From assembly GCA_965552055.1 (NCBI GenBank), contig CBEVQO010000002.1, positions 430,796-494,795 on the forward strand: a stretch of DNA of 64,000 bases. Direction: 5' to 3'. Below the pieces are notes generated by a model. The model was not told the origin of the DNA and ran no database searches. It saw only the letters and a program-made list of their open reading frames with translations. The position numbers were made by a program, and so were the translations under genes. Below, piece after piece: positions 807-62,909 of this stretch. The stretch is from an uncultured bacterium (GTDB lineage Bacteria; Hydrothermota; UBA3073; NMUJ01; CBEVQO01). How positions within the stretch are numbered: the stretch's first letter is position 1; every line of letters begins with the position of its first letter.

Positions 807-833
807 TTGACTTTACAGTTCTTTAATTAAAAT
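807..833 (+). promoter_or_regulatory. sigma70-like promoter TTGACT-N15-TAAAAT
   Basis: Intergenic; -10 lies 5 nt before ATG 839; no SD. Confidence 0.65.
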
Positions 834-835
834 AA

Positions 836-1249
836 ATGATGAAAAGAGATTTACCTTTGACTCCACAAGAAGCAATTGAAAGGTCAGAAGAATATTATAA
901 CAACGCCAAAGAAATTTTAAAAGATGTGGAAATAAAATTTGGGATTTACACTGATGGCAAAAAGGTAAGGGAAGCATGTGCAATGGGTTATCTGTCTGCA
1001 TTGACCGCAATAGACGCATATCTGCTGAAAAGAGGTAAAAAGCCAGAAGAATTGCCAACATCTTTTGCGGAATACAGAGAGGTGGTATCAAAAATGCCTT
1101 ACAATGGAAAGCTAACAGCATCTTTAACCGCAGTTTACCAGAACCTTCATGTGCTCGGATATTACAGAGGCGGTATAGAAGTAGAGATGATTAAATCTGG
1201 CTTCAAACATGCAAAGAGAATAATCGATACAATTAAGAAACTGGTATGA
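836..1249 (+). CDS. DUF5618-like/HEPN-like helical protein, copy 1 (start may be 839)
   Basis: YYNNAKEIL...VREACAMGYLSALTAID...LHVLGYY pattern. Confidence 0.6.
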   Translation: MMKRDLPLTPQEAIERSEEYYNNAKEILKDVEIKFGIYTDGKKVREACAMGYLSALTAIDAYLLKRGKKPEELPTSFAEYREVVSKMPYNGKLTASLTAVYQNLHVLGYYRGGIEVEMIKSGFKHAKRIIDTIKKLV

Positions 1250-1659
1250 TGAAGAGGGATTTGCCCTTAAATCCTAAAGAAGCGATTGAAAGGTCTGAAG
1301 AATATTACAATAATGCGAAAGAAATTTTAAAAGATGTTGAGATAAAATTTGGTCTTTATACCGATGGCAAAAAGGTAAGGGAGGCATGTGCAATGGGCTA
1401 TCTGTCTGCATTGACCGCAATAGACGCATATCTGCTGAAAAGAGGAAAAAAGCCAGAGGAATTGCCAACATCTTTCGCGGAATACAGAGAGGTGGTATCA
1501 AAAATGCCTTACAATGGAAAGCTAACAGCATCTTTAACCGCAGTTTATCAAAATCTTCATGTTTTTGGATATTACAGGGGTGGAATAGAAGTAGAGATGA
1601 TTAAATCTGGCTTCAAACATGCAAAAAGAATAATCGATACGATTAAGAAACTGGTGTAA
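1246..1659 (+). CDS. DUF5618-like/HEPN-like helical protein, copy 2
   Basis: 133/137 aa identical to copy 1; ATGA overlap. Confidence 0.6.
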   Translation: MMKRDLPLNPKEAIERSEEYYNNAKEILKDVEIKFGLYTDGKKVREACAMGYLSALTAIDAYLLKRGKKPEELPTSFAEYREVVSKMPYNGKLTASLTAVYQNLHVFGYYRGGIEVEMIKSGFKHAKRIIDTIKKLV

Positions 1660-2660
1660 TGGAAAGAATACTGCTTGTTAGGACGCATGCGATCGGAGAT
1701 GTATTGCTGACAACACCGGCTGTAAAAGCTGCGAGAAAAATTTATCCAGATGCAAAAATAGATTACTTAACAACAAAATGGTCAAAAGAAGCAATAACTT
1801 TAAATCCTAATATAGACGAAATAATAGCAGTGGATGACGATGTTTTTTTCTCAAAAAATCCTACAAAAATCATCAAATTGGTAAAAGAATTGAAAAAAAG
1901 AAATTATGATAGAATTTATGCATTTCACAGATCAAAGAAAATCCATCTTTTATGCAAGTTAATAGGCAATAAAGTAACAGGAATATCTGATGGCGATTTT
2001 AATCCTTTTCTCGATGAAAAAATAGTTTTAAAAAGGGAAAACAGCAATTATGTGGCAGATGATTATCTAAAAATGTTTAACATTGAAATTGAAAATTCTT
2101 CTCTCGAATTTTACTGGAGCAAGGAAGATGAAATTTTTATTGATAATTTAATTGGTGATTTAAGGTTTGTCTGTGTAGCACCTGGTGGTGCACATAATCC
2201 TGCGGAAAGCGTCTGGCAAAAATTGTGGAAGATTGAGAATTTTATAAAAGTAATTAAATATTTGAAAAACAGGAAGGAAAAAGTTATAATAGTGGGTGGC
2301 AAGAGCGATGAAAAAATTTGTAAGGAAATCGAAGAAAAATGCGAAATTTTAAATCTGTGCGGTAAATTAACTTTAAAGCATCTCGGAGTTTTGTTGAAAA
2401 GGAGTAAATTTTTATTAACAAATGATAGTGCACCCCTTCATATTGCTGTTGCGGTAAATACTCCTGTTATCGGGCTTTTTGGACCCACATCCCCTGATGT
2501 GCTTTTACCCAAAAGAGAAAACATTATAGCAATAAGGAGCGATGCCGAATGTAGCCCCTGTTATGTTAACCGCAGATTTAAAGGATGTAAAAAGCCAATT
2601 TGTATGGATATGATAACCACTGATAAAGTAATCTCCGTAATTGAGAAGAAATTCTATTAA
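1659..2660 (+). CDS. GT9 lipopolysaccharide heptosyltransferase (WaaF-like)
   Basis: ILLVRTHAIGDVLLTTP; TNDSAPLHIAVA; LFGPT; CSPC. Confidence 0.85.
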   Translation: MERILLVRTHAIGDVLLTTPAVKAARKIYPDAKIDYLTTKWSKEAITLNPNIDEIIAVDDDVFFSKNPTKIIKLVKELKKRNYDRIYAFHRSKKIHLLCKLIGNKVTGISDGDFNPFLDEKIVLKRENSNYVADDYLKMFNIEIENSSLEFYWSKEDEIFIDNLIGDLRFVCVAPGGAHNPAESVWQKLWKIENFIKVIKYLKNRKEKVIIVGGKSDEKICKEIEEKCEILNLCGKLTLKHLGVLLKRSKFLLTNDSAPLHIAVAVNTPVIGLFGPTSPDVLLPKRENIIAIRSDAECSPCYVNRRFKGCKKPICMDMITTDKVISVIEKKFY

Positions 2661-2670
2661 AATTTTTAAT

Positions 2671-2794
2671 GCGAGCGAAAGCGAGTAAGGCACTGCCTTG
2701 ACCACGCTGTGGCTTTATAAACACCCTTCCCGTAATGAATCACAAGTACCTTGAGAGGGGTGTGCACGAGGGCGGTGGGGACAGGGAGGTGGGC
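2671..2794 (+). ncRNA. Candidate structured ncRNA (rod with internal bubble; possibly 6S-like)
   Basis: GC-rich island; CACUGCCUUG/CAGGGAGGUG, CCAC-GCU/GGC-GUGG and ACACCCUUC/GAGGGGUGU pairings; G-U pairs favour the + strand. Confidence 0.5.
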
Positions 2795-2803
2795 AAAAAA
2801 TAT

Positions 2804-2830
2804 TTGACAAATAAATAATTTGATTAAATT
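2804..2830 (+). promoter_or_regulatory. promoter TTGACA-N15-TAAATT
   Basis: -10 lies 5 nt before rph ATG. Confidence 0.7.
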
Positions 2831-2835
2831 TAGAG

Positions 2836-3549
2836 ATGAGATTCGATGGTAGAAATTATGATGAACTGAGACCCCTTGAAATCATAAAGGATTATTTAAA
2901 GGATGTTGAAGGTTCGTGTCTTATAAAACTTGGCAATACCCATGTTATCTGTACTGCTACTGTTCAATCAGGTGCGCCGAAATTTGCGAAGGACCAGGGT
3001 ATTGGCTGGGTTACCGCGGAATACAGGATGATACCGAGAGCTGTTCCCGAGCGCCTTCCCCGTGACAAAATAAACGGAAGGTCAATAGAGATACAGAGAA
3101 TTATAGGAAGGTCTTTGAGAGGAGCATGCGATTTATCTTTACTAAATGGTTATACAATATGGATTGATTGTGATGTGATACAGGCAGATGGTGGCACAAG
3201 GGTTACTTCGATCATCGGTGGTTTTGTTGCACTTTATGATGCAATTCAACATATGTTATCACTTGGAATGATTGAAAAAAGTCCCATCAAAAAATTCATA
3301 GGCGCTGTAAGTGTGGGTATTGTGGAAGGCAAACCTATGCTTGATTTAACTTTTGAAGAAGATTCAAAAGCAGATGTTGACATGAATGTCGTAATGACCG
3401 AAAATTATGAGATTATTGAATTACAGGCAACGGGAGAAGGAGGAACTTTAAAAGAAGAAGATTTAAAATTAATGCTTGAACTTGCCAAAAAAGGAATAAA
3501 TGAAATAATAAATAAGGAAAAAGAAGTCCTGTGGTTGAAGCGTAGTTAA
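2836..3549 (+). CDS. rph: Ribonuclease PH
   Basis: MRFDGR..DELRP; GWVTAEY; EIQRIIGRSLR; DCDVIQADGGTR; DVDMNVVMT. Confidence 0.95.
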   Translation: MRFDGRNYDELRPLEIIKDYLKDVEGSCLIKLGNTHVICTATVQSGAPKFAKDQGIGWVTAEYRMIPRAVPERLPRDKINGRSIEIQRIIGRSLRGACDLSLLNGYTIWIDCDVIQADGGTRVTSIIGGFVALYDAIQHMLSLGMIEKSPIKKFIGAVSVGIVEGKPMLDLTFEEDSKADVDMNVVMTENYEIIELQATGEGGTLKEEDLKLMLELAKKGINEIINKEKEVLWLKRS

Positions 3550-3560
3550 TCCACCTTCAA

Positions 3561-4517
3561 ATGCCTCTAATAGTTTTTGAAAGAAAAGTTCGTGCTGGTG
3601 CAGGAATGCGTCTTGACAAATATTTACATCAAGTAGGACTCGGACTCTCTCGTACACAAATCCAGAAATTAATAGAAGAAGGCAAAGTACTGGTAAATGG
3701 CAGACCTGTAAAACCCAGTTATACTTTGAAAAGAGGAGATGAAATTTATGCAGAATACGAAAGAAAAGAACCTTTAAAGATAGAACCTGAACCCATTCCC
3801 CTTGATATAATTTATGAAGATGATTACATAGTAGTTGTGAACAAGCCTGCTGGTATGGTTACGCACCCTGCGCCCGGCAATCTACGTGGCACCCTTGTAA
3901 ATGCGCTTTTACATCACTGCGGCTTGGCAAAAGCAGATAGTATCGCAAGACCAGGCGTAGTCCATAGACTTGATAAAGACACATCGGGAGTTATTGTTTT
4001 CGCAAAAGAAAAGATTGCCTTATCAAATCTTGCAGAACAACTGCAAAAAAGAAGAATGAAAAAAGAATATTTAACATTTGTATGGGGAAATTTGCCACTG
4101 GATAAAGGAATAATCGATGCTCCGATTGGCAGGGATTTTATCGATAGGAAAAAAATGGCAGTAACACCTCTTTTATCCAAAGATGCTATTACCGAATATT
4201 TTGTTGAAAAGCGTTATAAATACATAACATTTGCGAGGGTGCATATTTTAACAGGCAGGACACATCAAATAAGGGTACACATGGCGCACATAGGGCATCC
4301 TGTTGTGGGTGACGAAACTTATCAGGGTAGACAGCGCTTATCGGGTATACCCCATGAATTTTTCGAAAAGGTTTTAGAAATTATGCAAAGACAGGCGTTG
4401 CATTCACATAAACTTGGTTTTGAACATCCTGTTACAAAAAAATGGATGGAATTTGAAGCTCCTCTTCCAGAAGACATGAGAAACTTAAAAGAGTTTTTGG
4501 AGGCACAAATTAATTGA
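3561..4517 (+). CDS. rluD: RluA-family pseudouridine synthase with S4 domain
   Basis: RLDKYL S4 domain; NKPAGMVTHP; VHRLDKDTSG; TGRTHQIRVH; RQALH. Confidence 0.9.
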   Translation: MPLIVFERKVRAGAGMRLDKYLHQVGLGLSRTQIQKLIEEGKVLVNGRPVKPSYTLKRGDEIYAEYERKEPLKIEPEPIPLDIIYEDDYIVVVNKPAGMVTHPAPGNLRGTLVNALLHHCGLAKADSIARPGVVHRLDKDTSGVIVFAKEKIALSNLAEQLQKRRMKKEYLTFVWGNLPLDKGIIDAPIGRDFIDRKKMAVTPLLSKDAITEYFVEKRYKYITFARVHILTGRTHQIRVHMAHIGHPVVGDETYQGRQRLSGIPHEFFEKVLEIMQRQALHSHKLGFEHPVTKKWMEFEAPLPEDMRNLKEFLEAQIN

Positions 4518-4540
4518 CAAAACTGTAAATCGATTATAAT
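4514..4540 (+). promoter_or_regulatory. promoter TTGACA-N15-TATAAT
   Basis: Perfect hexamers, followed by SD AGGAGGG and ATG 4560. Confidence 0.75.
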
Positions 4541-4559
4541 GGGCTAAAAAGGAGGGATT

Positions 4560-4979
4560 ATGGCAAGGATTGAGGACTATGAATTGCCGGATGACCTTTA
4601 TTACCATAAAGAGCATTTCTGGGTAAGAGTAGAAGACAAAAAAGCTGTTGTGGGCTTTACTGACTTTGCTCAAAAAATGGCAGGTGAGATTAGTTTCGTA
4701 GAATTGCCCGAAGTTGACCAGGATGTACAAAAAGACGAAGTAATAGGTTCAATCGAAACAGGTAAATGGCTTGGAAAAATTTACGCACCACTATCTGGTA
4801 CAATCACAAGAGTAAATGAAGAGTTAGAGGACGAACCCACTCTCATAAACGAAGACCCATACGGTAGAGGATGGCTGTTTGAAATGGAAATAACAAATCC
4901 AGATGAACTTAAAGAATTATATAAAGGAGAAAAAGCTGTTGAATGGCTTAAGGAAGAAATCAAAAAATATAAAAAATAG
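4560..4979 (+). CDS. gcvH: GcvH/LbpA-like lipoyl carrier protein
   Basis: GFTDFAQ, IETGKW lipoyl-Lys motif, INEDPYGRGW. Confidence 0.85.
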   Translation: MARIEDYELPDDLYYHKEHFWVRVEDKKAVVGFTDFAQKMAGEISFVELPEVDQDVQKDEVIGSIETGKWLGKIYAPLSGTITRVNEELEDEPTLINEDPYGRGWLFEMEITNPDELKELYKGEKAVEWLKEEIKKYKK

Positions 4980-4983
4980 CAAG

Positions 4984-7969: not shown

Positions 7970-7977
7970 GGGGTAAA

Positions 7978-11641: not shown

Positions 11642-12444
11642 ATTGATAAAGCCTCACAAATAAGCTCTGTAAAATATTTTACCTCTATACCTGTGAAATC
11701 TGGATAGTTTTCCTTTATAAAATCCTGAAAGTTCTTAAGATTATAATGGCAAAGCGGACAGGAGGTTATCAAAATTTCTCCTCCCCTATCTATTGCGGAT
11801 TTAAGTATCTTGTGAGCCCTCTCAATAACGAATTCCTTTTCATTTACAACCTGATAACTTCCGCAACATTCATTCATAAATGGAAACTCAACGGGCTCAC
11901 CGCCTATTGCTTTTATTAAATCGGATAATATATGGGGATTCTCAGGGTCATCAAGCGCTGCTTCTTCGGGACGCAAAAGCATACATCCATAATAAGGTGC
12001 CACTTTCTTACCTATCTTTTTCTTCACCATTTGCCCCAATTTATCGAAACCAAATTCTTTTAACAAATGAAGACCATGAATTACCTCAACACCTCCATCA
12101 TATTTCGTTTCCTCTTCATACATCAAATCGTTTATCTTATCCATCTTTTCTTTATCTCTTTTCACAAGTAAATCAACTCTTTTAAGGGTGTTGTAACACA
12201 TAGAGCACATACACAAAATCTTATCTGCCCCTTCTTCCTTTGCTCTTATCAAATTTCTGAAAGACGCAACATGAAACATAACATTATCAGAAGCAAGTGA
12301 ATAAACTGTTCCACAACAATTCCATCTATCGAGTTCTTTTATGTCGTATCCTAAATACTTAAAGAGTTTTTTCGAAGTCTCATCAAATTCTTTCGCATCT
12401 GATTTTAAGGTGCATCCAGGATAATATAAAATCTTCTCACTCAT
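11638..12444 (-). CDS. hdrB: Heterodisulfide reductase subunit B-like
   Basis: YYPGC; WNCCG; CSMC; YYGCMLLRP; CCG; CPLC. Confidence 0.85.
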   Translation of the reverse strand: MSEKILYYPGCTLKSDAKEFDETSKKLFKYLGYDIKELDRWNCCGTVYSLASDNVMFHVASFRNLIRAKEEGADKILCMCSMCYNTLKRVDLLVKRDKEKMDKINDLMYEEETKYDGGVEVIHGLHLLKEFGFDKLGQMVKKKIGKKVAPYYGCMLLRPEEAALDDPENPHILSDLIKAIGGEPVEFPFMNECCGSYQVVNEKEFVIERAHKILKSAIDRGGEILITSCPLCHYNLKNFQDFIKENYPDFTGIEVKYFTELICEALSI

Positions 12445-12833
12445 GCTGATAACTTTCTTTGCGCACTTATCAAAGCAATTGGTGGCAGGATTTTTCTTTC
12501 ATCTTCCTTTATTTTATTCAAATGCACATGGTCTATATTTTCGCGTAATTTCAACAATCTAACGGCTTCAAACACACGGGCAAGGTCAATTCCCCGGGGA
12601 CACCTGACAGTACACATAAAGCAACTTGCACAAATCCATATCGTTTTTGAATCAATTACCCTCCTTACATTGCCCATCTGTAAATACCTTATCGCCTGAT
12701 TCGGAAGCAAATCCATTGCAGAAGCAGAAGGACAACTACCAGAACATCTACCACACTGATAGCACAACATTATGTTTTGCTCAGATATCTCTTCTATTCT
12801 CTTAAGCTCGGAAATGTTCAATCCTAAATTCAT
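12441..12833 (-). CDS. hdrC: Heterodisulfide reductase subunit C-like
   Basis: CYQCGRCSGSCP; IWICASCFMCTVRCPRGID. Confidence 0.85.
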   Translation of the reverse strand: MNLGLNISELKRIEEISEQNIMLCYQCGRCSGSCPSASAMDLLPNQAIRYLQMGNVRRVIDSKTIWICASCFMCTVRCPRGIDLARVFEAVRLLKLRENIDHVHLNKIKEDERKILPPIALISAQRKLSA

Positions 12834-12838
12834 CATCT

Positions 12839-12865
12839 ATTTTAATCCTATTCCCAGAATGTCAA
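12839..12865 (-). promoter_or_regulatory. promoter TTGACA-N15-TAAAAT
   Basis: -10 lies 5 nt before ATG 12833. Confidence 0.7.
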
Positions 12866-12889: not shown

Positions 12890-12916
12890 TTGACATTTTT
12901 AAATTTCTTTTAAATT
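12890..12916 (+). promoter_or_regulatory. promoter TTGACA-N15-TAAATT
   Basis: -10 lies 6 nt before ATG 12923. Confidence 0.7.
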
Positions 12917-12922: not shown

Positions 12923-13576
12923 ATGAAAATAAAAGCAGATTTGCATATCCACACCTTTTATTCTCCCGATAGTATAATAACATTTCAAACCTTAATAAAA
13001 ATTTGTAAAAGGAGAAAGATAAATTGCGTTGCCATCACAGACCATAACACAATTAAAGGAGCTGTAGAATTTTCAAAAATTTCTCCGCTCAAAGTTATTA
13101 TCGGTGAAGAAATTGATACGAAAGATGGCGAAATTATAGGCTATTTTTTGAAAAAAGAAATCAGAAAAGGTTTAAGTGCAGAAGATACTGTTTATGCTAT
13201 AAAAGAACAAGATGGTCTTGTGTGCATTCCCCATCCTTTTGACAAATTAAGGGGCTCTGCATTGAATCCCGATAAATTAATGAAAATCATTGATGATGTT
13301 GACATAATCGAAGGTGTAAATGGCAGGGTTTTTAAAGAGCTTGATAATGCTCTCGCAATAGAATTTGCGGTTGCTTATAAAAAGCAGGTATCCGCAGGAA
13401 GCGATGCACATACAGCACTTGAAATCGGTATCGCAACAGTAGAACTTGAAGATTTTAACTCAAAAGAAGAATTTTTAAAAAACCTTGAAGATGCTAAAAT
13501 TTATAACAAAGTAAGTCATCCCATTGTCCATATTTTTAGCACGGGAATTAAAATTGCGAAAAAAATATTAAAATGA
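12923..13576 (+). CDS. PHP-domain phosphoesterase
   Basis: DLHIHT; AITDHN; PHPF; GSDAH. Confidence 0.9.
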   Translation: MKIKADLHIHTFYSPDSIITFQTLIKICKRRKINCVAITDHNTIKGAVEFSKISPLKVIIGEEIDTKDGEIIGYFLKKEIRKGLSAEDTVYAIKEQDGLVCIPHPFDKLRGSALNPDKLMKIIDDVDIIEGVNGRVFKELDNALAIEFAVAYKKQVSAGSDAHTALEIGIATVELEDFNSKEEFLKNLEDAKIYNKVSHPIVHIFSTGIKIAKKILK

Positions 13577-30634: not shown

Positions 30635-30661
30635 TTTATAATCCATCTGTGAGGTTGTCAA
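30635..30661 (-). promoter_or_regulatory. promoter TTGACA-N15-TATAAA
   Basis: Upstream of SD GGAGGGG of the TonB receptor gene. Confidence 0.65.
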
Positions 30662-30696
30662 GCTAAATTTAATTTCAAATTTTTTTTAATTTCTAC

Positions 30697-30723
30697 TTGA
30701 CAATTTCAAAAATCGATTAATAT
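30697..30723 (+). promoter_or_regulatory. promoter TTGACA-N15-TAATAT
   Basis: 9 nt before ATG 30733. Confidence 0.65.
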
Positions 30724-31517: not shown

Positions 31518-31646
31518 GGGGACCTTCGGTGCCCATACCGTGGGGGACACACCCGAACCCATTCCGAATTCGGTCGTTAAGCCCCACAGGGCCGATGGTA
31601 CTGCACCCGCAAGGGTGTGGGAGAGTAGGTCGGTGCCGGGGGTCCC
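31518..31646 (+). rRNA. rrf: 5S rRNA (orphan)
   Basis: CACCCGAACCCATTCCGAA, GCCGATGGTACTG, GGGAGAGTAGGTCG; terminal helix GGGACCTTCGG/CCGGGGGTCCC. Confidence 0.95.
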
Positions 31647-33923: not shown

Positions 33924-33929
33924 CGTGGG

Positions 33930-34002
33930 AGGCGCCGGGCGGATTCGAACCGCCGCATAGTGGTTTTGCAGACCACCCCCTTAACCCCTTGGGTACGGCG
34001 CC
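33930..34002 (-). tRNA. tRNA-Cys(GCA)
   Basis: Cloverleaf; anticodon arm GTGGT-CTGCAAA-ACCAC; GGTTCGAATCC; no encoded CCA. Confidence 0.95.
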
Positions 34003-34003
34003 G

Positions 34004-34075
34004 AGCGGAAGACGGGATTCGAACCCGCGACCTCCTGCATGGCAAGCAGGCGCTCTACCGCTGAGCTACTTCCGC
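34004..34075 (-). tRNA. tRNA-Gly(GCC)
   Basis: GCGGAAG acceptor; CCTGC-TTGCCAT-GCAGG; GGTTCGAATCC. Confidence 0.95.
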
Positions 34076-34083: not shown

Positions 34084-34110
34084 ATTATATCCAAAATCTT
34101 AAATTGTCAA
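34084..34110 (-). promoter_or_regulatory. promoter TTGACA-N15-TATAAT
   Basis: Perfect hexamers 8 nt upstream of tRNA-Gly. Confidence 0.75.
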
Positions 34111-35611: not shown

Positions 35612-36970
35612 CTAAATATTTTCCGGCAGCTTAATTATGCCTTCTTTCATCATCAGGTGTATTTCTTCGCGTGCTCTTTTTATCCTCTCTTCTGCCATTT
35701 TTCTTAATTCTTCTTCTGTTCTCTTTATCCTTGCTACTCCCTGTTCTATTGCTTTCATTCCGCAAGCCACTGCTTCATCAACAAAAACTTCCCATTCATC
35801 CATCCGCGGTATGATATAATCTTCGCTTAAACCTTTTTTCTCTGCACTTTTTGCAAGCGATTCTGCAGCCGCTATGCACATCTCATCGGTTATCGTTCTT
35901 GCCCATACATCGAGCACTCCTCTGAAAATACCGGGGAATCCCAGGGAATTATTAATCTGATTTGGAAAATCAGACCTTCCTGTTGCAACTATTCTGGCAC
36001 CTGCTTCTTTTGCTTCCCATGGCCATATTTCGGGAATCGGGTTCGCTTCCGTAAATACTATGGGCTCTTTCGCCATCATTTCAATCCATTCCTTTTTAAT
36101 GGTACCTGGACCCGGCTTTGAAGCAGCTATCAATACATCTGCTCCTTTCATCGCCTCTGGTATGCCACCTGTTCTGCCTTCGGCATTCGTATGCGTGCAA
36201 ACCCACCATTTCTCTTTGAATTGTTCTTTTTTCTCCTCAATGTCTTTCCTACCCGGATGTAAAATTCCTTTTGAATCGCACATTATTACATTTTCGGGTT
36301 TAACCCCTGCTTTTATTATCACGCGTAAAATACAAATATTTGCTGCTCCAGCTCCCACCATTGCTACTTTTATCTTATCAAGAGGTTTACCCACAATTTT
36401 ACATGCGTTTATCAGACCTGCACAGGTTATGGCAGCTGTCCCCTGCTGGTCATCATGCCATACAGGTATTTCCATCTCATTTCTTAGCCTCTCAAGAATA
36501 TAAAAACATTTCGGTTGCGCTATATCTTCCAAGTTTATTCCACCAAATGTAGGCTCCAGTGCTTTTACTATCTCGCAGAACTTATCCGGGTCTTTTTCTC
36601 TTATACAAATCGGAAATGCATCCACTCCTCCCAGATATTTAAAAAGTAACGCTTTTCCTTCCATTACAGGCAAAGCAGCTTCCGGACCTATATCACCCAG
36701 ACCGAGTACCCTTGTTCCATCTGAAACAACTGCAACGAAGTTCGCTTTGTTGGTATATTCAAAAACCTTCTCAAAATGCTCCTTTATATCTTTACAGGGT
36801 TCCGCTACTCCAGGAGTATACCATATTGCAAAATCATCGAATCCTCTGATACAACATTTCGCAGTCACTTCAATTTTACCCTGATAGAATGGGTGCAGCT
36901 TTAATGCATCCTGTCCCGGTTTCTTAGCCTTTGCAAGCAACTCCTCAACTGTATATTTTTTCTCCATCAC
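35612..36970 (-). CDS. NAD(P)-dependent malic enzyme
   Basis: YTPGVA; GLGDIGPEA; NLEDI; HDDQQGTA; GAGAA; TGRSDFPNQINN. Confidence 0.93.
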   Translation of the reverse strand: MMEKKYTVEELLAKAKKPGQDALKLHPFYQGKIEVTAKCCIRGFDDFAIWYTPGVAEPCKDIKEHFEKVFEYTNKANFVAVVSDGTRVLGLGDIGPEAALPVMEGKALLFKYLGGVDAFPICIREKDPDKFCEIVKALEPTFGGINLEDIAQPKCFYILERLRNEMEIPVWHDDQQGTAAITCAGLINACKIVGKPLDKIKVAMVGAGAANICILRVIIKAGVKPENVIMCDSKGILHPGRKDIEEKKEQFKEKWWVCTHTNAEGRTGGIPEAMKGADVLIAASKPGPGTIKKEWIEMMAKEPIVFTEANPIPEIWPWEAKEAGARIVATGRSDFPNQINNSLGFPGIFRGVLDVWARTITDEMCIAAAESLAKSAEKKGLSEDYIIPRMDEWEVFVDEAVACGMKAIEQGVARIKRTEEELRKMAEERIKRAREEIHLMMKEGIIKLPENI

Positions 36971-36990: not shown

Positions 36991-37017
36991 AATTTAAGCC
37001 ATATACCAGTTTGTCAA
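36991..37017 (-). promoter_or_regulatory. promoter TTGACA-N15-TAAATT
   Basis: Upstream of SD AAGGAGG of the malic enzyme gene. Confidence 0.7.
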
Positions 37018-37026: not shown

Positions 37027-37053
37027 TTGACAAATATAAATTTTCATTAAAAT
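37027..37053 (+). promoter_or_regulatory. promoter TTGACA-N15-TAAAAT
   Basis: -10 lies 5 nt before ATG 37059. Confidence 0.7.
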
Positions 37054-37559: not shown

Positions 37560-38455
37560 TTTTTTTATTATTTTCTTTGAAATATTTATTTGCAGATACA
37601 AAGGATGCAAAATACTGGAAATTCAACAAAAGTTTGCGATGGCAAAAAGCAGAAATTATCGAAGTTCATAAAAACTATTCAGAAATAAAAAAAGCAGAGT
37701 TAAAATATTTCTTTTGCAAAAAGGTTGAAAATGGTGAAATAAAAAATAATAAAAAAATTTGTTATCTTATCGCGTATCATAGGTTTACCGATTTTCCTTT
37801 AAACGATTATGAAACGACGCCCTATCATTTTTATCGTCATATTGATTTTTTTGAAAAAAGGGGCTTTGAAATAATACCCTTAAAATGGCTCATCGATGCA
37901 CTTTATACTGGTAGGGACGACTTCCTGCCCGATACTTCAGTTGTTATAACAATCGACGATGGATATAGATGTTTTTTCAAAATTTACGATTTTGTAAAGA
38001 AAAGAGAAATTCCTCTTACTCATTTCATTTATATAAATTTTGTGGAAGCACCAGGGGGCTTTAATTGGGATGAACTACGAAAATTAGCAAAAGAAGGTTT
38101 TGACATTCAATCACATACAATCTCACATCCCGACTTAACAGAAATAAATAATAATAGATTGCGAATAGAATTAGAATTATCGAAAAAATGGCTCGAAGAT
38201 GAACTTGGTGTAAACATTTATGCAATTGCCTATCCTTATGGTGCAGTTAATCAAAGGGTGGAAAGAGAAGCGATTCTCGCAGGATACTGGGCTGGTGTAA
38301 CGATATATTGGGGATATAACGACCTCAGGGTAAATCCAATGAGACTACGGCGCTTAGAAATCTTCTCACACGACACTCCTCAAATATTATCACAGAAATT
38401 GCTCCAATCAAATAATTATATGCGTGAATATTACCGCAATAAATGGACATTTTAA
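37556..38455 (+). CDS. Polysaccharide deacetylase (CE4/NodB-like)
   Basis: YHR; ITIDDGY; SHTISHPDL; AYPYG. Confidence 0.85.
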   Translation: MIFLLFSLKYLFADTKDAKYWKFNKSLRWQKAEIIEVHKNYSEIKKAELKYFFCKKVENGEIKNNKKICYLIAYHRFTDFPLNDYETTPYHFYRHIDFFEKRGFEIIPLKWLIDALYTGRDDFLPDTSVVITIDDGYRCFFKIYDFVKKREIPLTHFIYINFVEAPGGFNWDELRKLAKEGFDIQSHTISHPDLTEINNNRLRIELELSKKWLEDELGVNIYAIAYPYGAVNQRVEREAILAGYWAGVTIYWGYNDLRVNPMRLRRLEIFSHDTPQILSQKLLQSNNYMREYYRNKWTF

Positions 38456-38473
38456 ATTATGAATAAATTTTTA

Positions 38474-38500
38474 TTGACAAACTGATATTTTACTTAAAAT
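38474..38500 (+). promoter_or_regulatory. promoter TTGACA-N15-TAAAAT
   Basis: -10 lies 5 nt before ATG 38506. Confidence 0.7.
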
Positions 38501-44925: not shown

Positions 44926-44952
44926 AGTTTAAACAAATATTGTAATTGTCAA
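44926..44952 (-). promoter_or_regulatory. promoter TTGACA-N15-TAAACT
   Basis: -10 lies 5 nt before ATG 44920. Confidence 0.7.
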
Positions 44953-44962: not shown

Positions 44963-44989
44963 TTGACAAAGTACTATTTTGAATAATAA
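44963..44989 (+). promoter_or_regulatory. promoter TTGACA-N15-TAATAA (register ambiguous in AT run)
   Basis: 9 nt upstream of tRNA-Arg. Confidence 0.55.
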
Positions 44990-44998
44990 TTATTGTGT

Positions 44999-45072
44999 GC
45001 CCCCGTAGCTCAACTGGATAGAGCATCGGATTTCTAATCCGAGGGTTGGGGGTTCGAGTCCCTCCGGGGGCA
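44999..45072 (+). tRNA. tRNA-Arg(TCT)
   Basis: GCCCCCG/CGGGGGC acceptor; TCGGA-TTTCTAA-TCCGA; GGTTCGAGTCC. Confidence 0.95.
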
Positions 45073-45081
45073 GGAGGTATT

Positions 45082-50164: not shown

Positions 50165-53100
50165 CTATCTGAAATTAACCTCAGCACCAAAACCTACTTT
50201 AAAATCTAACCTCCCTTCGTTCCTGCCCTTAAAATAATTTATCTCAAAAATCCCTGCTCCCGTTAACTGACGATTTATCCTGTAGTTCAACTTTAAGTCA
50301 ACACCCGCTGTCTTCCTGTCTTCCATTACTGTCCACTTCATTTTGCTATTATTATTTAAATCACTTCCTCCCTTTGTCAAGCTATTTTTTTCAGCTTCTT
50401 CACCGCCTCGAAGCTGGTATTTGCGGGATAATGTATATTCACCTGACAATGTTAAATTCACAACATTTTTCAATCTAATGTAGCCAAAAAATGGCAAATG
50501 TATTCCCTTGCGAGTATCTAAAGTCCTGCGAGTCGAGAATCTAAAATTAAAATCATAACCCTTTGTCCTGTTAACCATACCATAGGAGGAGAATTCCCCT
50601 TTTTCCAAGGAGTAATTAAAAGAGAAATCTACCTCTATACTTTTTATAAACCGAATCCTGGGTGACACACCCGTTGTAAAGGTCTTTTCTACTCTCTCCT
50701 TCTTTTCTGTCTCTCTTGTCCTCTTTATTAAATATCCGAGTGAAATACCCGATAAGGAAATACGCTCCACCATTGGCAAATACTTTGACAATATTTGAAA
50801 ATAGCTGTCATTGAGACCCACATCTATGCTGAAATTATGTGTTATTATCTTTGTGGGTGATAAATTTGCTCTCGTCTTGCTGATTTCCTGTGAATAATCG
50901 TAGGTAAACGACAATCTGTTAAAAATTAACCATTTTTTAAATTCAAATCCCTTTACCCTGATTGCGCGCTTCTTTCTCTGCGGAAAATTAATGGTATCGT
51001 AGTCATAAGGTATCTCATCTTTAAACGGATGAAATTTAAATATCCACCATTTTTTATCAGCTTTTAATGGAAAAGCAATCAAACCATCTATTTCCCTGAA
51101 TTCCTTTCTCCTCGATAGCTCGAAACTAACCCCATTCCAGCTTAAATGTTTTTCAATAAATTCACCTGCAAAAGGTATCCACTTCATCACTTTAAAGACA
51201 TCAAAATAAATATCAGCCTTCCAGTTTACATTTTTATTTATGCGTGCAACCGGATTTTCGATGTCTTTAACTACGGTATCTACATTTGGAATAGTTGCTC
51301 TCCTTTTTAGAGTCAATGAAATGTTTAATGAAGGTGAGAGACGAATTAGGGTAAAAACGGGGACCGATAAATTGATAGCAAGGTCTTCTTTTGTATCGGG
51401 AATCCACCATTTTATTATCCTGCCCCATTCTTCGTATTGCCTTGGTCTAACACGCAAATTGATAGGCGAAGGAATATCAGGCGAATATCTTGCAGAAAAA
51501 CTCGCTTTCTTATCACCCAGTGATGGAAATTTTAAACTAAAACCTAAACTCGGAATATTGCTGACCTTTATCTCTTGTTTTACTGTCCTTTTAAATTTCT
51601 CACCTTTATTCTTATCTAAAACATAAGAATACGAATATGATAAACCTCTGCTTTTCATAAAAGGTAATTTAAAAGATAAAACACTTCCACTTAATGAATA
51701 ACTATAAGAAAACTTATACCCATTTCTTTCTTCTGTAAAACTTCTTCTTAAATCCGCACGGCTGATATTGAATATCGGTAATGAAAAGGGTTGGGTTATA
51801 GAGAAAAATTTTGAATCAATGTCTGTCTTGTATTTTTTCCTCTCTTTTAAAGGAATTTTAATATCACTTTTCGGGAGATATGTTGGTATTTTTACACTTT
51901 TTTTGTAGTTAAATCTCGTTGTTATTTCTTTACCTCTTACAGGTATTTTCAATGTTGGAGCAATTTCAATTTCCCTTTTTGCTATGTGAGCAGGTTTACT
52001 TCCTATTTTTGAGAAATCCGCTGAATTATCCGTATATTTGGCGGTAACGCCTATGAGATTTTTAAACATGTTCAATTTCAATGTCGTTTGAATTATCTTT
52101 CCTTTCCTCACTCTTGGGGAAACAAGCGTTAACTCATTGACATAAACCTCTGCATCGATTGGTTCTGTCTCATCGTTAAGCAATTCAAGTTCCATAAATT
52201 TTATCTGGCTTAGAGAAGGATTGCCTTTCTTTATGAAATTCCCGCTCGTATCTTTTTCGACTGACTTCAATCTCGGAAAAGAATCTAACGGTATAACCCA
52301 TGGCTCATTCCAGTCATTCTGAACCTTTCTTGTATATGCATACCAGTCGTTTTCACCCGTGCAGAATTTAATAACGAGTCGCCCCCTGTTACCTTTTACA
52401 TAAACCCTTGCTTCGTTGTAATCCATTAAATCTCTCGGATTATTAAACCTTAACCTGGCTACACCTTTATGCCCTGGCAGTAAATTCCTTGCCCTTAATA
52501 TAAGAGAACCTTCAACTTCCCTTCCCATGCCTATTACACCTGTCTCACGGGTACCCTCGATGCCCTCTGGTGGACGATAAAGCGTATCTTCCTCTGTAGT
52601 AACGGCATCTATCTCAAACTCACCTCCAAGGCTATCAGAAGGGAAAATCCCAAGATTAACCCATTTCGGAGTCACTATGCTAAACTCCACTATCTCAATT
52701 TTATCACCAGGTTTTAAACTATCGAACCATATTCTCAGGAATTTTATACATCTCCATGTAGGCTTGCCAACACTATCTGCCTCTTTTAACGGCACACGAT
52801 ATAGTTTCCAGCCATGACTCTCTTTTAAATAATTTTTGTTTAACTTCAATTTAAAAGAAAAATAAGATGGCTCTTTTCCGTCAAGTACCCTATCTTTATC
52901 AAGGTCCTCTGAATCTATTTCTTTATTTCTCTCTGTGCCGTTTATCCTCAAATAACCTTCTTTTTCCGAGAAATCATCGTTACCATCGTCCCTGATTGAA
53001 TCTGGCAAATCTGGATTGAAATCAGCATCATTACCTGCTACACCATCGAGTCCAACATCTTCACCTGCATCGAGCATCCTGTTTTCATTCTTATCCTCTG

Positions 53101-55471
53101 TATCCAGTTTATTATTCGGTGGAATTAACCTGCCCGAGGCATCTCTCCTTACAATGTCCTCTGAAATCTCCCCACCCACATCTATATGCATTATTGCATC
53201 GCAATTTGATTTCGCCCAAAACTCAATGTAGGTTGCCTCCTTATAATCTTCTCCTGCGGTGGAAATGCAGGTGAGCAGGGATGTCCAGTGATAATCATAA
53301 TTGTCATCATATCGCCATTTTTCTGTTATCGTATCGGGCAATACAATACAAAGAGGTGTGCGCGTCTCACCACCGTAATACCCCGGATAAAACCATTTAT
53401 AAAGGGGCTTCTCCTTTTCTTTCTTTGGATTATACCATATAACCTGGGCAAAGTTCCAAAGTCTCTTACCGGGAACACTACCGCATATCCATTTTCTGTA
53501 AAATAAATTTATCCTGTCTTTTATCAACCCTGCATCCATATCATCTATGTATCCTGCACCTCTGGTATTCGGATTGTAAAATGTATATCCGCCTTGCATC
53601 GATATTTCCATATCTGCGAAAGATGCAGTGAATTTCTTCTTAAAGAACATTTCTGTTCCAAACAATCTAAAAGGTGCTGAATAAAACTTGGGCTTCAGCT
53701 CAAGAGGTGGTGCTGTCTGCGATAAAAGTGTGAAACCAAAATCACCTGTCCGGCTTACTCCCTGTATGATAAATAACTGCTTGGCACCTATTTGAATAAA
53801 CTGTTTATACCTGTAAGTAACTTTAATTTCAGCATTGGGGGACATAGCTTCTTTATCATAAATCACAATCTCTCCTGTCTCATAATCTATGGAATAATCT
53901 TTGCCCCTTTTTAACTCCCTGCCGTTTAAAATTACTGTCTCGGAACTATCTTCCACAGGCACATTCTTTAATCGTATCTTTTTAACTTCTTTTGGTTGAA
54001 ATTTTATTTTTATCGCATACGTGGGTTCAAAATCGGTAAAATCCTGAATGTTATAAATCGTATCCGGTGGTGATAACTTCTCAAAGGGTTTAAAATCAGG
54101 GAAATATAAAAAGCCATAATCAAAATTAACATACTCTATTTTGACAGCATTCTCATCCCCTATTCCAAGTAGTTCTCTGTATTTAATTCCATTTTCATCT
54201 CTTACTTTTAAACTTTCCTGACCTGCTTCTGTCCTTATTATTTTATAAACCTCAACATCAAAATTTCTTTCCTCAACTGGTTCGGTTGAAAATTGATAAA
54301 TGTTTTTTAACTCATACTCCCATGAAATGTAGTCCACATAGTTTGTGCTCCTATCCCTCCTTATAACAATTAAATTGGTAAATGTGTCTCTTACCGGATA
54401 AAAACTTCCAACGGTATCTATCTTTGAACCATCCTGATAAATGTAGGTTACAGCAAGCCAGTCAGATGAAGAGAGCGAAGTTTTCAAATATAATATCTCT
54501 CCTACATTGCTCGGCAACAATTCATACTCTTCCTTTTCCATCTCTTTCACCATCATTAACTTCTCATCTTTCTCACCTTTTTTGCTCCAGTCCACCAGTA
54601 TCGCTGGATATGTAACATCCTCGGGATAATAACTTGTTGTAAACACACGACAATCTATAATCGTAAAATTGGAAGAAATTTGCTCATTGGGTTTCAAAAG
54701 GAAAAATTTATCTTTAGTAAATTGATAATCGTATAATAAAACACTATCTATCCTTGCTTTACCAGTGAACTTCTCGGTCTTGAGCTCCGATCTCTCCAGT
54801 GCATAAAATATCCACAAATCTAAAGGTCCGAATTGCATCTTAGATTGAAGACCAAACATCCCTCCCATGCCAAGCGCAAGATTGCCCATCACTTTCGGGC
54901 CATAAAGCTGAGACGGTTTTATATCGCCTCCGTTTATAGTTTTTATTATCTCATGTTCCAGCCCCTCATATCTTATCTTAACCATATTCTGCCATGTGAA
55001 TTCCCTTTTCGCATCATAGGATATATCCGTGTGAATCTTTTGCCCAATGGTACCCCTTGCCCTTAGCTGCATGTCATGATCCATCCACATATTTGTTGTC
55101 ATTTTAGAATATTCACTTAATTTCTCGCCAAAAGGCTTTGTGCCCTGCAAACCCATATCTACCTTCACAAGTCCCCTTTCAACTTTTAAATTACCACCCT
55201 GACCGATAATACCAACAATCGGAGAAGGTAATTGAAGCGGTAAACTTATCTGCAAACCACTTATACGCGGTAGAGATTTTAATTCAGCTCTCCACCTGTC
55301 AACCAGAGCTTCACGAAAACTTGAATAAAGTAAACTATCAGAAAAATTACGAAAAGATAAATAACTTACACCAATAAGTAAAGTATCATAATAATATTCT
55401 TTAACCAAATAATCGTTTTCGACATCTATTTTTATGTTATTTAAAGCAAACAGAAAAATTAATTTCAGCAT
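50165..55471 (-). CDS. sprA: SprA/Sov-like giant outer-membrane protein (T9SS translocon homologue)
   Basis: G.IGQK; KIRYEG.E.EIIK; GMFG; SE.V.LNG..L.RG.DY.IDY..G; GEISED; DTEDKN; DVGLDG; NGTE.N; VNEL; C-terminal beta-signal. Confidence 0.75.
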   Translation of the reverse strand: MLKLIFLFALNNIKIDVENDYLVKEYYYDTLLIGVSYLSFRNFSDSLLYSSFREALVDRWRAELKSLPRISGLQISLPLQLPSPIVGIIGQGGNLKVERGLVKVDMGLQGTKPFGEKLSEYSKMTTNMWMDHDMQLRARGTIGQKIHTDISYDAKREFTWQNMVKIRYEGLEHEIIKTINGGDIKPSQLYGPKVMGNLALGMGGMFGLQSKMQFGPLDLWIFYALERSELKTEKFTGKARIDSVLLYDYQFTKDKFFLLKPNEQISSNFTIIDCRVFTTSYYPEDVTYPAILVDWSKKGEKDEKLMMVKEMEKEEYELLPSNVGEILYLKTSLSSSDWLAVTYIYQDGSKIDTVGSFYPVRDTFTNLIVIRRDRSTNYVDYISWEYELKNIYQFSTEPVEERNFDVEVYKIIRTEAGQESLKVRDENGIKYRELLGIGDENAVKIEYVNFDYGFLYFPDFKPFEKLSPPDTIYNIQDFTDFEPTYAIKIKFQPKEVKKIRLKNVPVEDSSETVILNGRELKRGKDYSIDYETGEIVIYDKEAMSPNAEIKVTYRYKQFIQIGAKQLFIIQGVSRTGDFGFTLLSQTAPPLELKPKFYSAPFRLFGTEMFFKKKFTASFADMEISMQGGYTFYNPNTRGAGYIDDMDAGLIKDRINLFYRKWICGSVPGKRLWNFAQVIWYNPKKEKEKPLYKWFYPGYYGGETRTPLCIVLPDTITEKWRYDDNYDYHWTSLLTCISTAGEDYKEATYIEFWAKSNCDAIMHIDVGGEISEDIVRRDASGRLIPPNNKLDTEDKNENRMLDAGEDVGLDGVAGNDADFNPDLPDSIRDDGNDDFSEKEGYLRINGTERNKEIDSEDLDKDRVLDGKEPSYFSFKLKLNKNYLKESHGWKLYRVPLKEADSVGKPTWRCIKFLRIWFDSLKPGDKIEIVEFSIVTPKWVNLGIFPSDSLGGEFEIDAVTTEEDTLYRPPEGIEGTRETGVIGMGREVEGSLILRARNLLPGHKGVARLRFNNPRDLMDYNEARVYVKGNRGRLVIKFCTGENDWYAYTRKVQNDWNEPWVIPLDSFPRLKSVEKDTSGNFIKKGNPSLSQIKFMELELLNDETEPIDAEVYVNELTLVSPRVRKGKIIQTTLKLNMFKNLIGVTAKYTDNSADFSKIGSKPAHIAKREIEIAPTLKIPVRGKEITTRFNYKKSVKIPTYLPKSDIKIPLKERKKYKTDIDSKFFSITQPFSLPIFNISRADLRRSFTEERNGYKFSYSYSLSGSVLSFKLPFMKSRGLSYSYSYVLDKNKGEKFKRTVKQEIKVSNIPSLGFSLKFPSLGDKKASFSARYSPDIPSPINLRVRPRQYEEWGRIIKWWIPDTKEDLAINLSVPVFTLIRLSPSLNISLTLKRRATIPNVDTVVKDIENPVARINKNVNWKADIYFDVFKVMKWIPFAGEFIEKHLSWNGVSFELSRRKEFREIDGLIAFPLKADKKWWIFKFHPFKDEIPYDYDTINFPQRKKRAIRVKGFEFKKWLIFNRLSFTYDYSQEISKTRANLSPTKIITHNFSIDVGLNDSYFQILSKYLPMVERISLSGISLGYLIKRTRETEKKERVEKTFTTGVSPRIRFIKSIEVDFSFNYSLEKGEFSSYGMVNRTKGYDFNFRFSTRRTLDTRKGIHLPFFGYIRLKNVVNLTLSGEYTLSRKYQLRGGEEAEKNSLTKGGSDLNNNSKMKWTVMEDRKTAGVDLKLNYRINRQLTGAGIFEINYFKGRNEGRLDFKVGFGAEVNFR

Positions 55472-55508
55472 TCACATCAACTTCCATACCCCTCCTTCTT
55501 ACACTAAT

Positions 55509-55535
55509 AAATTAACCAATTTCAATTATTGTCAA
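55509..55535 (-). promoter_or_regulatory. promoter TTGACA-N15-TAATTT
   Basis: Upstream of the sprA operon. Confidence 0.65.
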
Positions 55536-55551
55536 GGTCAAAATTAAATTT

Positions 55552-61227: not shown

Positions 61228-61763
61228 TTTAACCTCCTTCCTATACTTAGTTTAACTCCAGCACCGTAGTAAATAACAGTGGACGATGTGGTAATAAATA
61301 TAACCTCAGGATGAATTATGGCACAAAGTTTGTACATCTGAAAATTATACATAAATTCTTTACCCAATGATAACTTAACACAGCTTTCTTCTGGTAACAT
61401 GCCGACAGCAAAGGATAAAGGTTCCCTCCCTGCTCCTATATAAAATAAACTTGTCCCTATTGTTAATAAAAAATTCCGCGACAATTCAAGAGAAATAGAT
61501 AAAGGAATAACTTCAGCTACTCCTCCAAATATTCCAGCGAGTCCTATCTCGCAAATTGCTCCTCTTGTGTAAAATTTAAAATTTAAAACTTTAAAATCCC
61601 ACATAGGACCAACTTTGTCCTCTGTCAATATATTGTAGCCATAGCCATTAAAACCACCCGTTTCCCAAAATTCCAGAACTACTTTTTTCCAGCCTTTTCC
61701 ATGTAAATGTAAGTAACAGCACACGCCTAATATTATCAAAAAAGTCCTCATTTTGACCTCCAC
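61224..61763 (-). CDS. Small exported beta-strand-rich protein (putative OM barrel)
   Basis: Signal-like N-terminus; alternating hydrophobic strands; paralogous to next gene. Confidence 0.55.
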   Translation of the reverse strand: MEVKMRTFLIILGVCCYLHLHGKGWKKVVLEFWETGGFNGYGYNILTEDKVGPMWDFKVLNFKFYTRGAICEIGLAGIFGGVAEVIPLSISLELSRNFLLTIGTSLFYIGAGREPLSFAVGMLPEESCVKLSLGKEFMYNFQMYKLCAIIHPEVIFITTSSTVIYYGAGVKLSIGRRLK

Positions 61764-62260
61764 CCTATACTCATTTCAAACCCTCCTATTAAATACATTT
61801 CCCCTATTTTATTAAATTCCAAAAATGGACGAAATTCAACGAAACTATTAGAAATATATTTTAGTGCCCTTTTGCCTATTCTCGCCCTTATACAAAGTTC
61901 CTTTTCTCTATAATAAATCCAGAATAACATTCCGAAAGTATAACCATTCTCATTTGAGGCAATTAGACATAAACTTGTCTCTAATTCCAATATGAGATTA
62001 AAGGGCAGTTTATAACAAAAAGAAATAGGAATAATTTCAAAGTAATGGGAAGATAGTGTGAGATGTCCTATGCTTAAAATTGTTCGTTTAAACTCAAATT
62101 CTGTGTTTAAAAGTCGTAAACCGTAAGCCCTTTTGAACTTAAATAACTCACTGCTTTCCATAATCAATGTTCCTCCCCAAAACTCAATTAGCTTAATTTT
62201 TGCTTCTTCCGGTTTAAACTGAAGCAGTGCTATCAAAATCCACAACATTTCATTATTCAC
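61748..62260 (-). CDS. Small exported beta-strand-rich protein (putative OM barrel)
   Basis: Collinear motifs shared with 61224..61763. Confidence 0.55.
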   Translation of the reverse strand: MNNEMLWILIALLQFKPEEAKIKLIEFWGGTLIMESSELFKFKRAYGLRLLNTEFEFKRTILSIGHLTLSSHYFEIIPISFCYKLPFNLILELETSLCLIASNENGYTFGMLFWIYYREKELCIRARIGKRALKYISNSFVEFRPFLEFNKIGEMYLIGGFEMSIGWRSK

Positions 62261-62865
62261 TTATAATCCACCAAGGTTTTACATAGCCATACTCTTGGAA
62301 ATTCGTCTTTTATAATTCCTACACCATCCGCAAGCCATAATCTCCTTACCACTCTTTCTTTATAAGAATAGAAATCCAGCCTTACACAAATAAATGTACC
62401 GGCAGGAGTAACTACAGTCTCTTCAGTGTCTGCCACTACGATAACAAGGCCCACTTCACTTCTCGGATATAATAAATAATGCCAAGTGTCACCTACTATT
62501 ATAGGCAATTTCGCAAGAGTACACGCCAAAACTGTATCAAATTCTTTTTCAATATCCGAACGCAGCTCCAATATCTCATTCGGAGTATTAGAATAATAAA
62601 CAGTTTCTGGCTTGATAGAATAAAGATAAACAGAGAGACCACCTTTGTTCGCAGGAAGCGCCCTGCAAGTCTCAATATATGTAGTCTCTACCAACAAAAT
62701 AGTGTCTCCGAAATTAAATCCTTTTTTCACCTCATAAACCCACATTCTATCAGATGCCAGTGGAAAATATTCAGCCTCAAGTACGTTTAAAAGTAACGAG
62801 CCTATTAGTACTAAACCCCTTTTTGCTATAAACTTTTTAATTTTTCTTACCCCCGCCAAAACCAT
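62257..62865 (-). CDS. Uncharacterised exported protein (YFPL..W.Y / TPAGTF / W.A.GVG family)
   Basis: Recurrent motif set; SD AGGAGGGAG. Confidence 0.6.
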   Translation of the reverse strand: MVLAGVRKIKKFIAKRGLVLIGSLLLNVLEAEYFPLASDRMWVYEVKKGFNFGDTILLVETTYIETCRALPANKGGLSVYLYSIKPETVYYSNTPNEILELRSDIEKEFDTVLACTLAKLPIIVGDTWHYLLYPRSEVGLVIVVADTEETVVTPAGTFICVRLDFYSYKERVVRRLWLADGVGIIKDEFPRVWLCKTLVDYK

Positions 62866-62882
62866 ACTCCCTCCTTTTTACC

Positions 62883-62909
62883 ATTTTAATCACCTTTTTT
62901 TTTCGTCAA
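62883..62909 (-). promoter_or_regulatory. promoter TTGACG-N15-TAAAAT
   Basis: Upstream of the SD of 62865. Confidence 0.65.

Follow-up and report, generated by a model that had tools for sequence, protein, structure and literature searches.

We analysed a 64,000-nt stretch (hereafter, the window) of contig CBEVQO010000002.1, positions 430,796–494,795, from the genome of an uncultured bacterium of candidate division WOR-3 (assembly GCA_965552055.1; 2.23 Mb in 15 contigs). The subject is a set of putative promoters in which the −35 and −10 hexamers are separated by 15 nt. The original prediction listed 15 such intergenic sites, all of which were found at their coordinates and on their strands. 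Recounting also reproduced a G 3 nt upstream of the −10 box in 11 of the 15 sites, a T directly upstream of it in 13, and two perfect copies of TTGACA-N15-TATAAT, at 4514 on the plus strand and 34110 on the minus strand. The underlying pattern, TTGAC(A/T/G)-N15-TA(A/T)NN(T/A), has 19 matches in the window, and the remaining spacers between 10 and 23 nt yield 0–5 each. The four further matches at 15 nt (14477+, 20486+, 55302−, and 9460−) are situated inside open reading frames (ORFs).

Several of the sites are followed almost immediately by a start codon. TTGACT-N15-TAAAAT (807..833, plus strand) has in-frame ATGs 2 and 5 nt past the −10 box, a leaderless-type arrangement, and precedes a DUF5618 gene (836–1249). 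The ATG is 5 nt past the −10 box at TTGACA-N15-TAAATT (2804..2830, plus; RNase PH gene, 2836–3549), at two copies of TTGACA-N15-TAAAAT on the plus strand (37027..37053, TPR protein gene ending at 37559; 38474..38500, NqrB/RnfD-family gene ending at 39510), and at TTGACA-N15-TAAACT (44926..44952, minus; metallo-beta-lactamase-fold gene ending at 44282). In one divergent pair, TTGACA-N15-TAAAAT (12839..12865, minus) has ATGs 2 and 5 nt past the −10 box and precedes a gene for a 4Fe-4S protein (12441–12836), and TTGACA-N15-TAAATT (12890..12916, plus) has an ATG 6 nt past it, at a PHP-domain gene (12923–13576).

Genes with a Shine-Dalgarno sequence are found downstream of the perfect site at 4514..4540 (plus; glycine cleavage H gene, 4560–4979), TTGACA-N15-TATAAA (30635..30661, minus; TonB-dependent receptor gene, 27529–30618), TTGACA-N15-TAAATT (36991..37017, minus, divergent with the 37027 site; malic enzyme gene, 35612–36970), and TTGACG-N15-TAAAAT (62883..62909, minus; gene at 62257–62865). 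TTGACA-N15-TAATTT (55509..55535, minus) is located upstream of an SprA_N-domain gene (50165–55471). Stable RNA genes are represented as well: the second perfect site (34084..34110, minus) lies 8 nt upstream of tRNA-Gly/tRNA-Cys (33928–34075), and TTGACA-N15-TAATAA (44963..44989, plus), divergent with the 44926..44952 site, lies 8–9 nt upstream of tRNA-Arg (44998–45073); the latter has a weak base at −7 and an overlapping 18-nt alternative, TAATTA. Finally, TTGACA-N15-TAATAT (30697..30723, plus; overlapping 18-nt alternative TATAGT), divergent with the receptor gene site, precedes a gene at 30733–31512 that is followed by 5S rRNA (31525–31641). The 5S gene thus comes after a protein gene, apart from the 16S–23S operon on contig C5.

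Genome-wide, TTGACA-n-TANNNT occurs 416 times with a spacer of 15 nt, 93 times with 16, and 106 times with 17, most other spacings giving 26–54, so the predicted peak at 15 rather than 17 is a property of the genome as a whole. The 416 sites come from 1818 occurrences of TTGACA; shuffling the 40 nt downstream of each in 200 rounds leaves 67.6 ± 8.3 (maximum 96). The minor bumps at 17, 20, and 22 nt are mostly echoes, as TANNNT is also present at 15 nt in 56/106, 61/95, and 41/82 cases, respectively. Outside deep coding sequence there are 727 TTGACA, and those with one candidate −10 box number 256 at 15 nt, 39 at 16, 21 at 17, and 32 over the rest of the 12–20 range. The mode of 17 ± 1 typical of σ70/σA is therefore absent; on the other hand, the spacer is not invariant, as had been claimed, since these exceptions exist and one tRNA-Ser gene has a clean 17-nt promoter. 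The −10 consensus is TAWAAT, and the spacer has a G at −15 in 52% of sites.

A trivial cause of this peak would be an artefact: bases deleted in assembly, a wrongly read register, or binding sites of a regulator other than sigma. The register was assigned from sequence alone, and AT-rich −10 regions do create overlapping alternatives at a few sites, e.g., the second rRNA promoter (P2) described below, readable at 15 or 18 nt. However, no better −10 box was found 2 nt downstream, and the 17-nt echoes noted above point the same way. Contigs from two sequencing runs, X1, possibly the source sample, and X2, from another study, are gap-free across five promoter spacers (30661 and 30697 in X1; 37017, 37027, and 38474 in both). 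Up to about 3% of letters differ between these contigs and the window, and the only listed indel, one base at 30680, is outside both adjacent spacers. ORFs are long and intact at a coding density of 94%, and the peak recurs in a second family, in three genomes with 45% GC. As for a dimeric regulator, no fixed-distance palindrome was seen genome-wide: TGTCAA-n-TTGACA is spread with at most 9 occurrences per distance, and TTGACA-n-TGTCAA reaches at most 2. We regard an artefact as highly improbable. A separate feature of the X1 contig is about 1.5 kb of extra sequence at window positions 38455–38465, just upstream of the 38474 promoter, which represents a strain-variable insertion.

The placement of the sites is that of housekeeping promoters. 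With a crude ORF set, 377 of the 416 sites are outside deep coding sequence, though the latter makes up 82% of the genome. Perfect TTGACA-N15-TANNNT is located 6–18 nt upstream of 20 of the 47 tRNA and tmRNA genes; besides the tRNA-Ser gene with the 17-nt promoter, 25 have no candidate and one has a weak candidate; inner members of tRNA clusters or of the rRNA operon account for several of these. The 16S gene is preceded by two tandem sites, the first at 15 nt and the second being P2. Among 380 genes with a divergent upstream neighbour, 201 have a 15-nt site, 25 a 16-nt site, and 39 a 17-nt site, and 137 have none, and for inner operon genes the count is 23 of 1140 with a 15-nt site. An A-rich tract, which we take to be an UP-element, is situated 7–9 nt upstream of the −35 box, and a C directly precedes that box in half of the sites. 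Against this simple picture, scans revealed no 15-nt site near dnaK, groEL, tuf, or rpsL, and none within about 9 kb upstream of rpoD, so these genes would be served by more distant or non-consensus promoters. Overall, the TTGACA-N15-TAWAAT sites, which precede tRNA and rRNA genes and the majority of genes leading an operon, are likely to function as the housekeeping promoters of this genome. An identical 60-nt promoter block occurs twice on the minus strand of contig C1, at 220094 and 225247.

On the downstream side, in-frame ATGs of called genes are most frequent 5 nt past the −10 box (79), followed by 6 (44), 7 (22), and 8 nt (15), with a second peak at 17–18 nt. An in-frame ATG at 4–29 nt follows 256 of the 15-nt sites, and at 170 of them it lies within 8 nt, amounting to an extensive leaderless architecture. 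A Shine-Dalgarno-like word accompanies 4 of the 170 sites with an ATG at 4–8 nt versus 55 of the 60 at 15–29 nt. The spacing does not depend on the choice of TTGACA as an anchor: when only TANNNT-N5-ATG is fixed (n = 198), a −35 box with at most one mismatch is found at 15 nt in 112 cases, at 16 in 16, and at 17 in 4. If these mRNAs are leaderless, transcription of the largest ATG class would start at most 6 bp past the −10 box; thus, a start site 6 nt past it, about 1 nt closer than usual, is likely at many genes. A close parallel is with leaderless promoters of Deinococcus-Thermus, where TANNNT likewise lies directly upstream of the start codon without a Shine-Dalgarno sequence (PMC12340547). 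There, however, the motif is about 6–7 bp upstream of the ORF with a helper −35 box at 17 bp, whereas here the modal distance is 5 nt and a near-perfect −35 box is at 15. In a named genome collection the full leaderless pattern gave 61 single matches, with no isolate matched twice, versus 22 matches in this genome. Ten viral contigs match it once each. L442, with four 15-nt matches, was rejected, as the matches are within or overlap coding sequence and ribosome-binding sites.

Comparisons across WOR-3 and with other genomes were based on samples rather than a census. In 41 genomes, counts of TTGACA-n-TAWAAT at 15, 16, and 17 nt show several distinct types. This genome has 253/47/17. Family f4 is sharply 17 (e.g., 1/5/251), G035 is sharply 16 (5/224/17), and many others peak at 16 or are mixed. 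The order also includes a sister family, whose three genomes likewise have their maximum at 15 but use a different −10 box, TAWWTT (66/24/11, 50/16/9, and 41/15/6; controls 2–9); family f3 has 44/115/83 and 36/115/87. Across 262 WOR-3 genomes with a completeness of 70% or more, the 15-nt matches number 163 per Mb in this genome and 47 and 42 in two sister genomes, and about 17 is the highest value elsewhere. Among these genomes, therefore, the 15-nt excess is confined to one order, comprising this genome and the three sister-family genomes. We also considered 36 genomes reached via named loci, 34 of them outside WOR-3 by title or unlabelled and two from WOR-3; 17 is ahead of 15 in 32, tied in two, and behind in two (15 vs. 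17: 2 vs. 1 and 12 vs. 6). The last of these, a 1-Mb genome outside WOR-3 by title (G063, via L190), has controls of 2 and 5 and gives a weak signal. Two Ignavibacteria favour 17 (15 vs. 17: 16 vs. 65 and 7 vs. 54). The labelled sequencing runs with the best coverage of this DNA are vent or marine sediment metagenomes, and the records nearest to an RpoD of the same class are labelled candidate division WOR-3. A literature search, conducted mostly without subscription journals, retrieved no report of a 15-nt mode for primary-sigma promoters and none on WOR-3 together with promoter and sigma factor.

Short nominal spacers are known for the alternative sigma factors σ28, σ32, and σB, and the core RNA polymerase accepts a shorter −35/−10 distance with another sigma. 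These factors recognize other hexamers and control small regulons, whereas here TTGACA and TATAAT precede housekeeping genes. Canonical σ70/σA promoters of E. coli, B. subtilis, and 49 surveyed species with mapped transcription start sites (PMC12641261) share with the present ones the hexamers TTGACA and TA(T/A)AAT, the A-rich upstream tract, and the placement. They differ in having a mode of 17 rather than 15, a start centred 7 rather than, as inferred here, 6 bp past the −10 box, and TGn at −15/−14 rather than G at −15. The 49-species survey reports mostly 17-bp spacers; its model was trained on E. coli and may hide species with a short mode. Promoters of the Bacteroidota/Chlorobi −33/−7 type, as described for Chlorobaculum tepidum (10.1101/172254), similarly have a −10-type box close to the start; the TAWWTT of the sister family resembles their TA[ATC][ATC][AT]T, and a short sigma with a similar region 2.3–2.4 signature is present. 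Unlike them, this genome uses a full TTGACA rather than TTG and retains a long RpoD, and the two Ignavibacteria prefer 17. Neither family has the Bacteroidota-type −7 box TAnnTTTG: it is TAWAAT here, and in the sister family TAWWTT is not followed by a conserved TG. MerR-activated promoters also have consensus boxes at a non-optimal distance, but at 19–20 bp (PMC8113463) their spacers are too long, they are few, and they need a bound activator; here the spacers are too short, and no operator was seen.

We consider the order-specific σ70 promoter variant with a 15-nt mode and the accompanying unusual sigma complement to be real and the short discriminator probable, while the causal steps discussed below are inferred. 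The claim of a housekeeping σ70-type promoter with a lineage-specific mode is thus supported by the motif, its placement, and its spread. The 17-bp optimum has been treated as a near-universal outcome of holoenzyme geometry, from which hundreds of near-consensus promoters at 15 nt depart. The 17-, 16-, and 15-type families of a single phylum would, if confirmed, form a natural series for what sets the distance between σ2 and σ4, so that exchanging subunits could show what determines the length of the spacer. The system may also offer a sigma–promoter pair with little cross-talk to standard hosts. Promoter prediction tools trained with 17 ± 1 will overlook promoters of such lineages or put them in the wrong place.

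This genome encodes five σ70-family proteins: RpoD, located after dnaG, a 265-residue short paralogue, a FliA/WhiG-type factor, and two small ones. The gene upstream of the FliA/WhiG-type sigma (L004) resembles, in our judgement, FlhG/FleN, presumably indicating flagellar genes in this WOR-3 genome. RpoD (L002:490–2217) contains Pfam regions 1.1, 1.2, 2, 3, and 4, and together with its position after dnaG this places it in group 1. It scores 284.8 bits against TIGR02393, below the NCBIfam cut-off of 354, as does one class relative (349.2). None of 7999 scored candidates matches it at above 35% over most of its length. The protein starts with two region-1.1-like repeats (L002:490–880); each of seven relatives viewed has one.

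Of 86 columns that are conserved among 36 other WOR-3 RpoDs, this RpoD departs from the consensus at 16, compared to 0–7 in its class relatives; the core subunits are less changed (17/335 in β and 27/447 in β′, both unremarkable). The changes cluster in σ2.4–σ3.0, namely, S428G, I435V, T440M, R441K, D445E, Q446H, V454P, and E458N (E. coli-equivalent numbering derived from the alignment offset), at positions that we take to have roles in reading the −10 and extended −10 elements. In addition, the σ3.0 helix lacks one residue at its end and the σ3.2 linker has two extra, differences that are also seen against solved SigA sequences; among 33 measurable RpoDs, this is the only one lacking a residue between the WW motif and σ3.2. 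The altered geometry of sigma or RNA polymerase proposed in the original prediction therefore finds a counterpart in RpoD, with its indels in σ3 and the σ3.2 linker and its changes at conserved σ2.4/σ3.0 positions, but not in the β flap, where an alignment of 19 RpoB sequences contains no indel. A G at −15 is also common in the 16-type G035 (54% of 13 sites), whose RpoD is changed at V454 and E458 as well, and the 17-type G013 has the canonical TGn in 60% of 25 sites. Since the melting residues (N383, W433/W434, Q437) and the σ4.2 helix TRERIRQIE are retained and all but one of 10 strain variants leave the protein unchanged, the gene is maintained: RpoD is intact and under purifying selection. 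A decaying RpoD was rejected on the same variants.

Taken at its broadest, an intrinsically changed holoenzyme, whether through RpoD, through a short sigma that has taken over, or through the core, is very probable. More specifically, we lean slightly towards a scenario in which the whole order runs housekeeping transcription on a compact holoenzyme (a 15-nt spacer, in this genome a 5-nt discriminator, and TTGACA about 32 nt upstream of the start), one family having dropped RpoD for a 275-residue paralogue. Such a holoenzyme would hold σ2 and σ4 about 2 bp closer than usual, most likely owing to remodelling of RpoD in σ2.4–σ3.2. RpoD would be the reader of the 15-nt promoters here, and in the sister family this role would fall to the short σ70 paralogue, with the same spacing and TAWWTT. 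The gauge was probably set in the ancestor of the order and inherited by whichever sigma reads now. That a re-gauged housekeeping holoenzyme is read in this genome by the remodelled RpoD we consider an evenly balanced proposition.

Several observations weigh against a simple causal role of RpoD. Identical linker lengths serve both 16- and 17-type families, and the 16-type G036 and G030 of family f15 (L058 and L059) have RpoDs whose divergence at conserved columns equals that seen here (15/87 and 22/88). Hence, neither the indels nor the divergence track spacer length across the phylum. The segment from the WW motif to σ4.2 is, on balance, one residue longer, not shorter. The spacer shift is a single event in one order and provides no basis for a correlation. 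Finally, the sister family has the 15-nt spacer without a detectable RpoD, so the changes in RpoD cannot be the whole cause.

In the sister family, RpoD was not found in any of three draft genomes (G001, G002, and G003; L043, L044, and L042; 99, 87, and 66% complete). In both of those where dnaG was found (L278, L279), an unrelated gene follows it. The sigmas found are an extracytoplasmic function (ECF) sigma and a 275-residue short paralogue after degP, the latter being the only group 1/2-like one. Loss of RpoD is likely, as a well-conserved gene was missed in three genomes, although absence from drafts is not proof. The short paralogue (about 265–275 aa, without region 1.1) is encoded in a degP-sigma-M23 peptidase operon. 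Hence, two sigmas read one inherited gauge, the short sigma reads both families, or the core sets the gauge.

Under the second option, the short paralogue took over housekeeping transcription in the ancestor of the order, after which the sister family lost RpoD and the copy in this genome drifted. A single event would then cover both families, and a short sigma without region 1.1 is indeed the only group 1/2-like sigma found in 3/3 sister genomes, incomplete as they are, though not in this genome. In a quick tree, the copies of the two families group together (Shimodaira–Hasegawa-like approximate likelihood ratio test, SH-aLRT, 85), and RpoD of this genome sits on a long branch apart from the clade of its class. 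The linker between σ3.2 and σ4 is 2–3 residues shorter in the short sigma than in RpoD, and the protein combines a [TS]RERVRQI σ4.2 helix with a SYAxWWIRQ signature, the latter present in two Bacteroidota sigmas, although the same tree does not firmly join it with them. In Chlorobaculum, the −10-type box is 4 bp from the start (10.1101/172254), similar to the short distance suggested here. What makes the takeover unlikely is, first, that RpoD is intact and under purifying selection. Secondly, the two families differ in ways suggesting different readers: 42 sister-family sites, from 0.71 of the 1.4 Mb of G001, have the same spacer with TAWWTT instead of TAWAAT, G at −15 in 14% instead of 52%, and few leaderless starts. 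Thirdly, families f3, f5, and f6 have equally short paralogues yet peak at 16 or 16/17, and the two Ignavibacteria, whose primary sigma we assume to be of the short type, favour 17. No separate class of 15-nt promoters was seen before the short-sigma operon in RpoD-bearing relatives, most loci ending before the operon start.

The third option is that the core sets the gauge: substitutions in β or β′ common to the order would place σ4 differently on the flap or displace the template, giving any sigma a preference for 15. This would account for a spacer common to both families despite their likely different sigmas. At conserved columns, 11 substitutions in β and another 11 in β′ are found throughout the order, including β K825R at the flap-tip base, β S1099A/N and F1117A, and β′ E39D and S354A (numbering of this genome), which we place near the zipper and switch regions. 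Spacer changes are reported to rotate the module of σ4 and the flap tip (PMC10216364). However, no indel was found in the β flap or, among 20 sequences, in the β′ zinc-binding domain or zipper; divergence of β and β′ is no higher than in relatives; and K825R is present in one 16-type genome as well. We consider it doubtful that the core sets the gauge, somewhat more so than the takeover. In the sister family, rpoB (L280, L281) has no adjacent rpoC, which is found on other contigs (L372–L374), and the neighbours downstream of rpoB are unrelated.

The last explanation leaves the polymerase ordinary and attributes the short spacer to the DNA of a thermophile being relaxed or overwound, or to an accessory factor. 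Reverse gyrase scores above the cut-off in this genome and in 2/3 sister genomes, versus 3/37 others, and DNA relaxation favours 15-nt spacers in E. coli (PMC9303308). Still, the three other genomes with reverse gyrase peak at 16 (G029, 2/44/26) or 17 (G026, 2/1/20; G038, 0/2/28). By simple arithmetic, compensating for 2 bp by twist would require about 69° over 15 bp, an overwinding of roughly 13%, and the 6.8 Å that are missing cannot be gained by twist. As to an accessory factor, no operator-like conserved box or palindrome was found within or beside the spacer. Altogether, this explanation is improbable; topology may contribute but is insufficient by itself. Loss of gyrase, suggested by a crude motif scan, was rejected, as GyrB is present in this genome and in 2/3 sister genomes.

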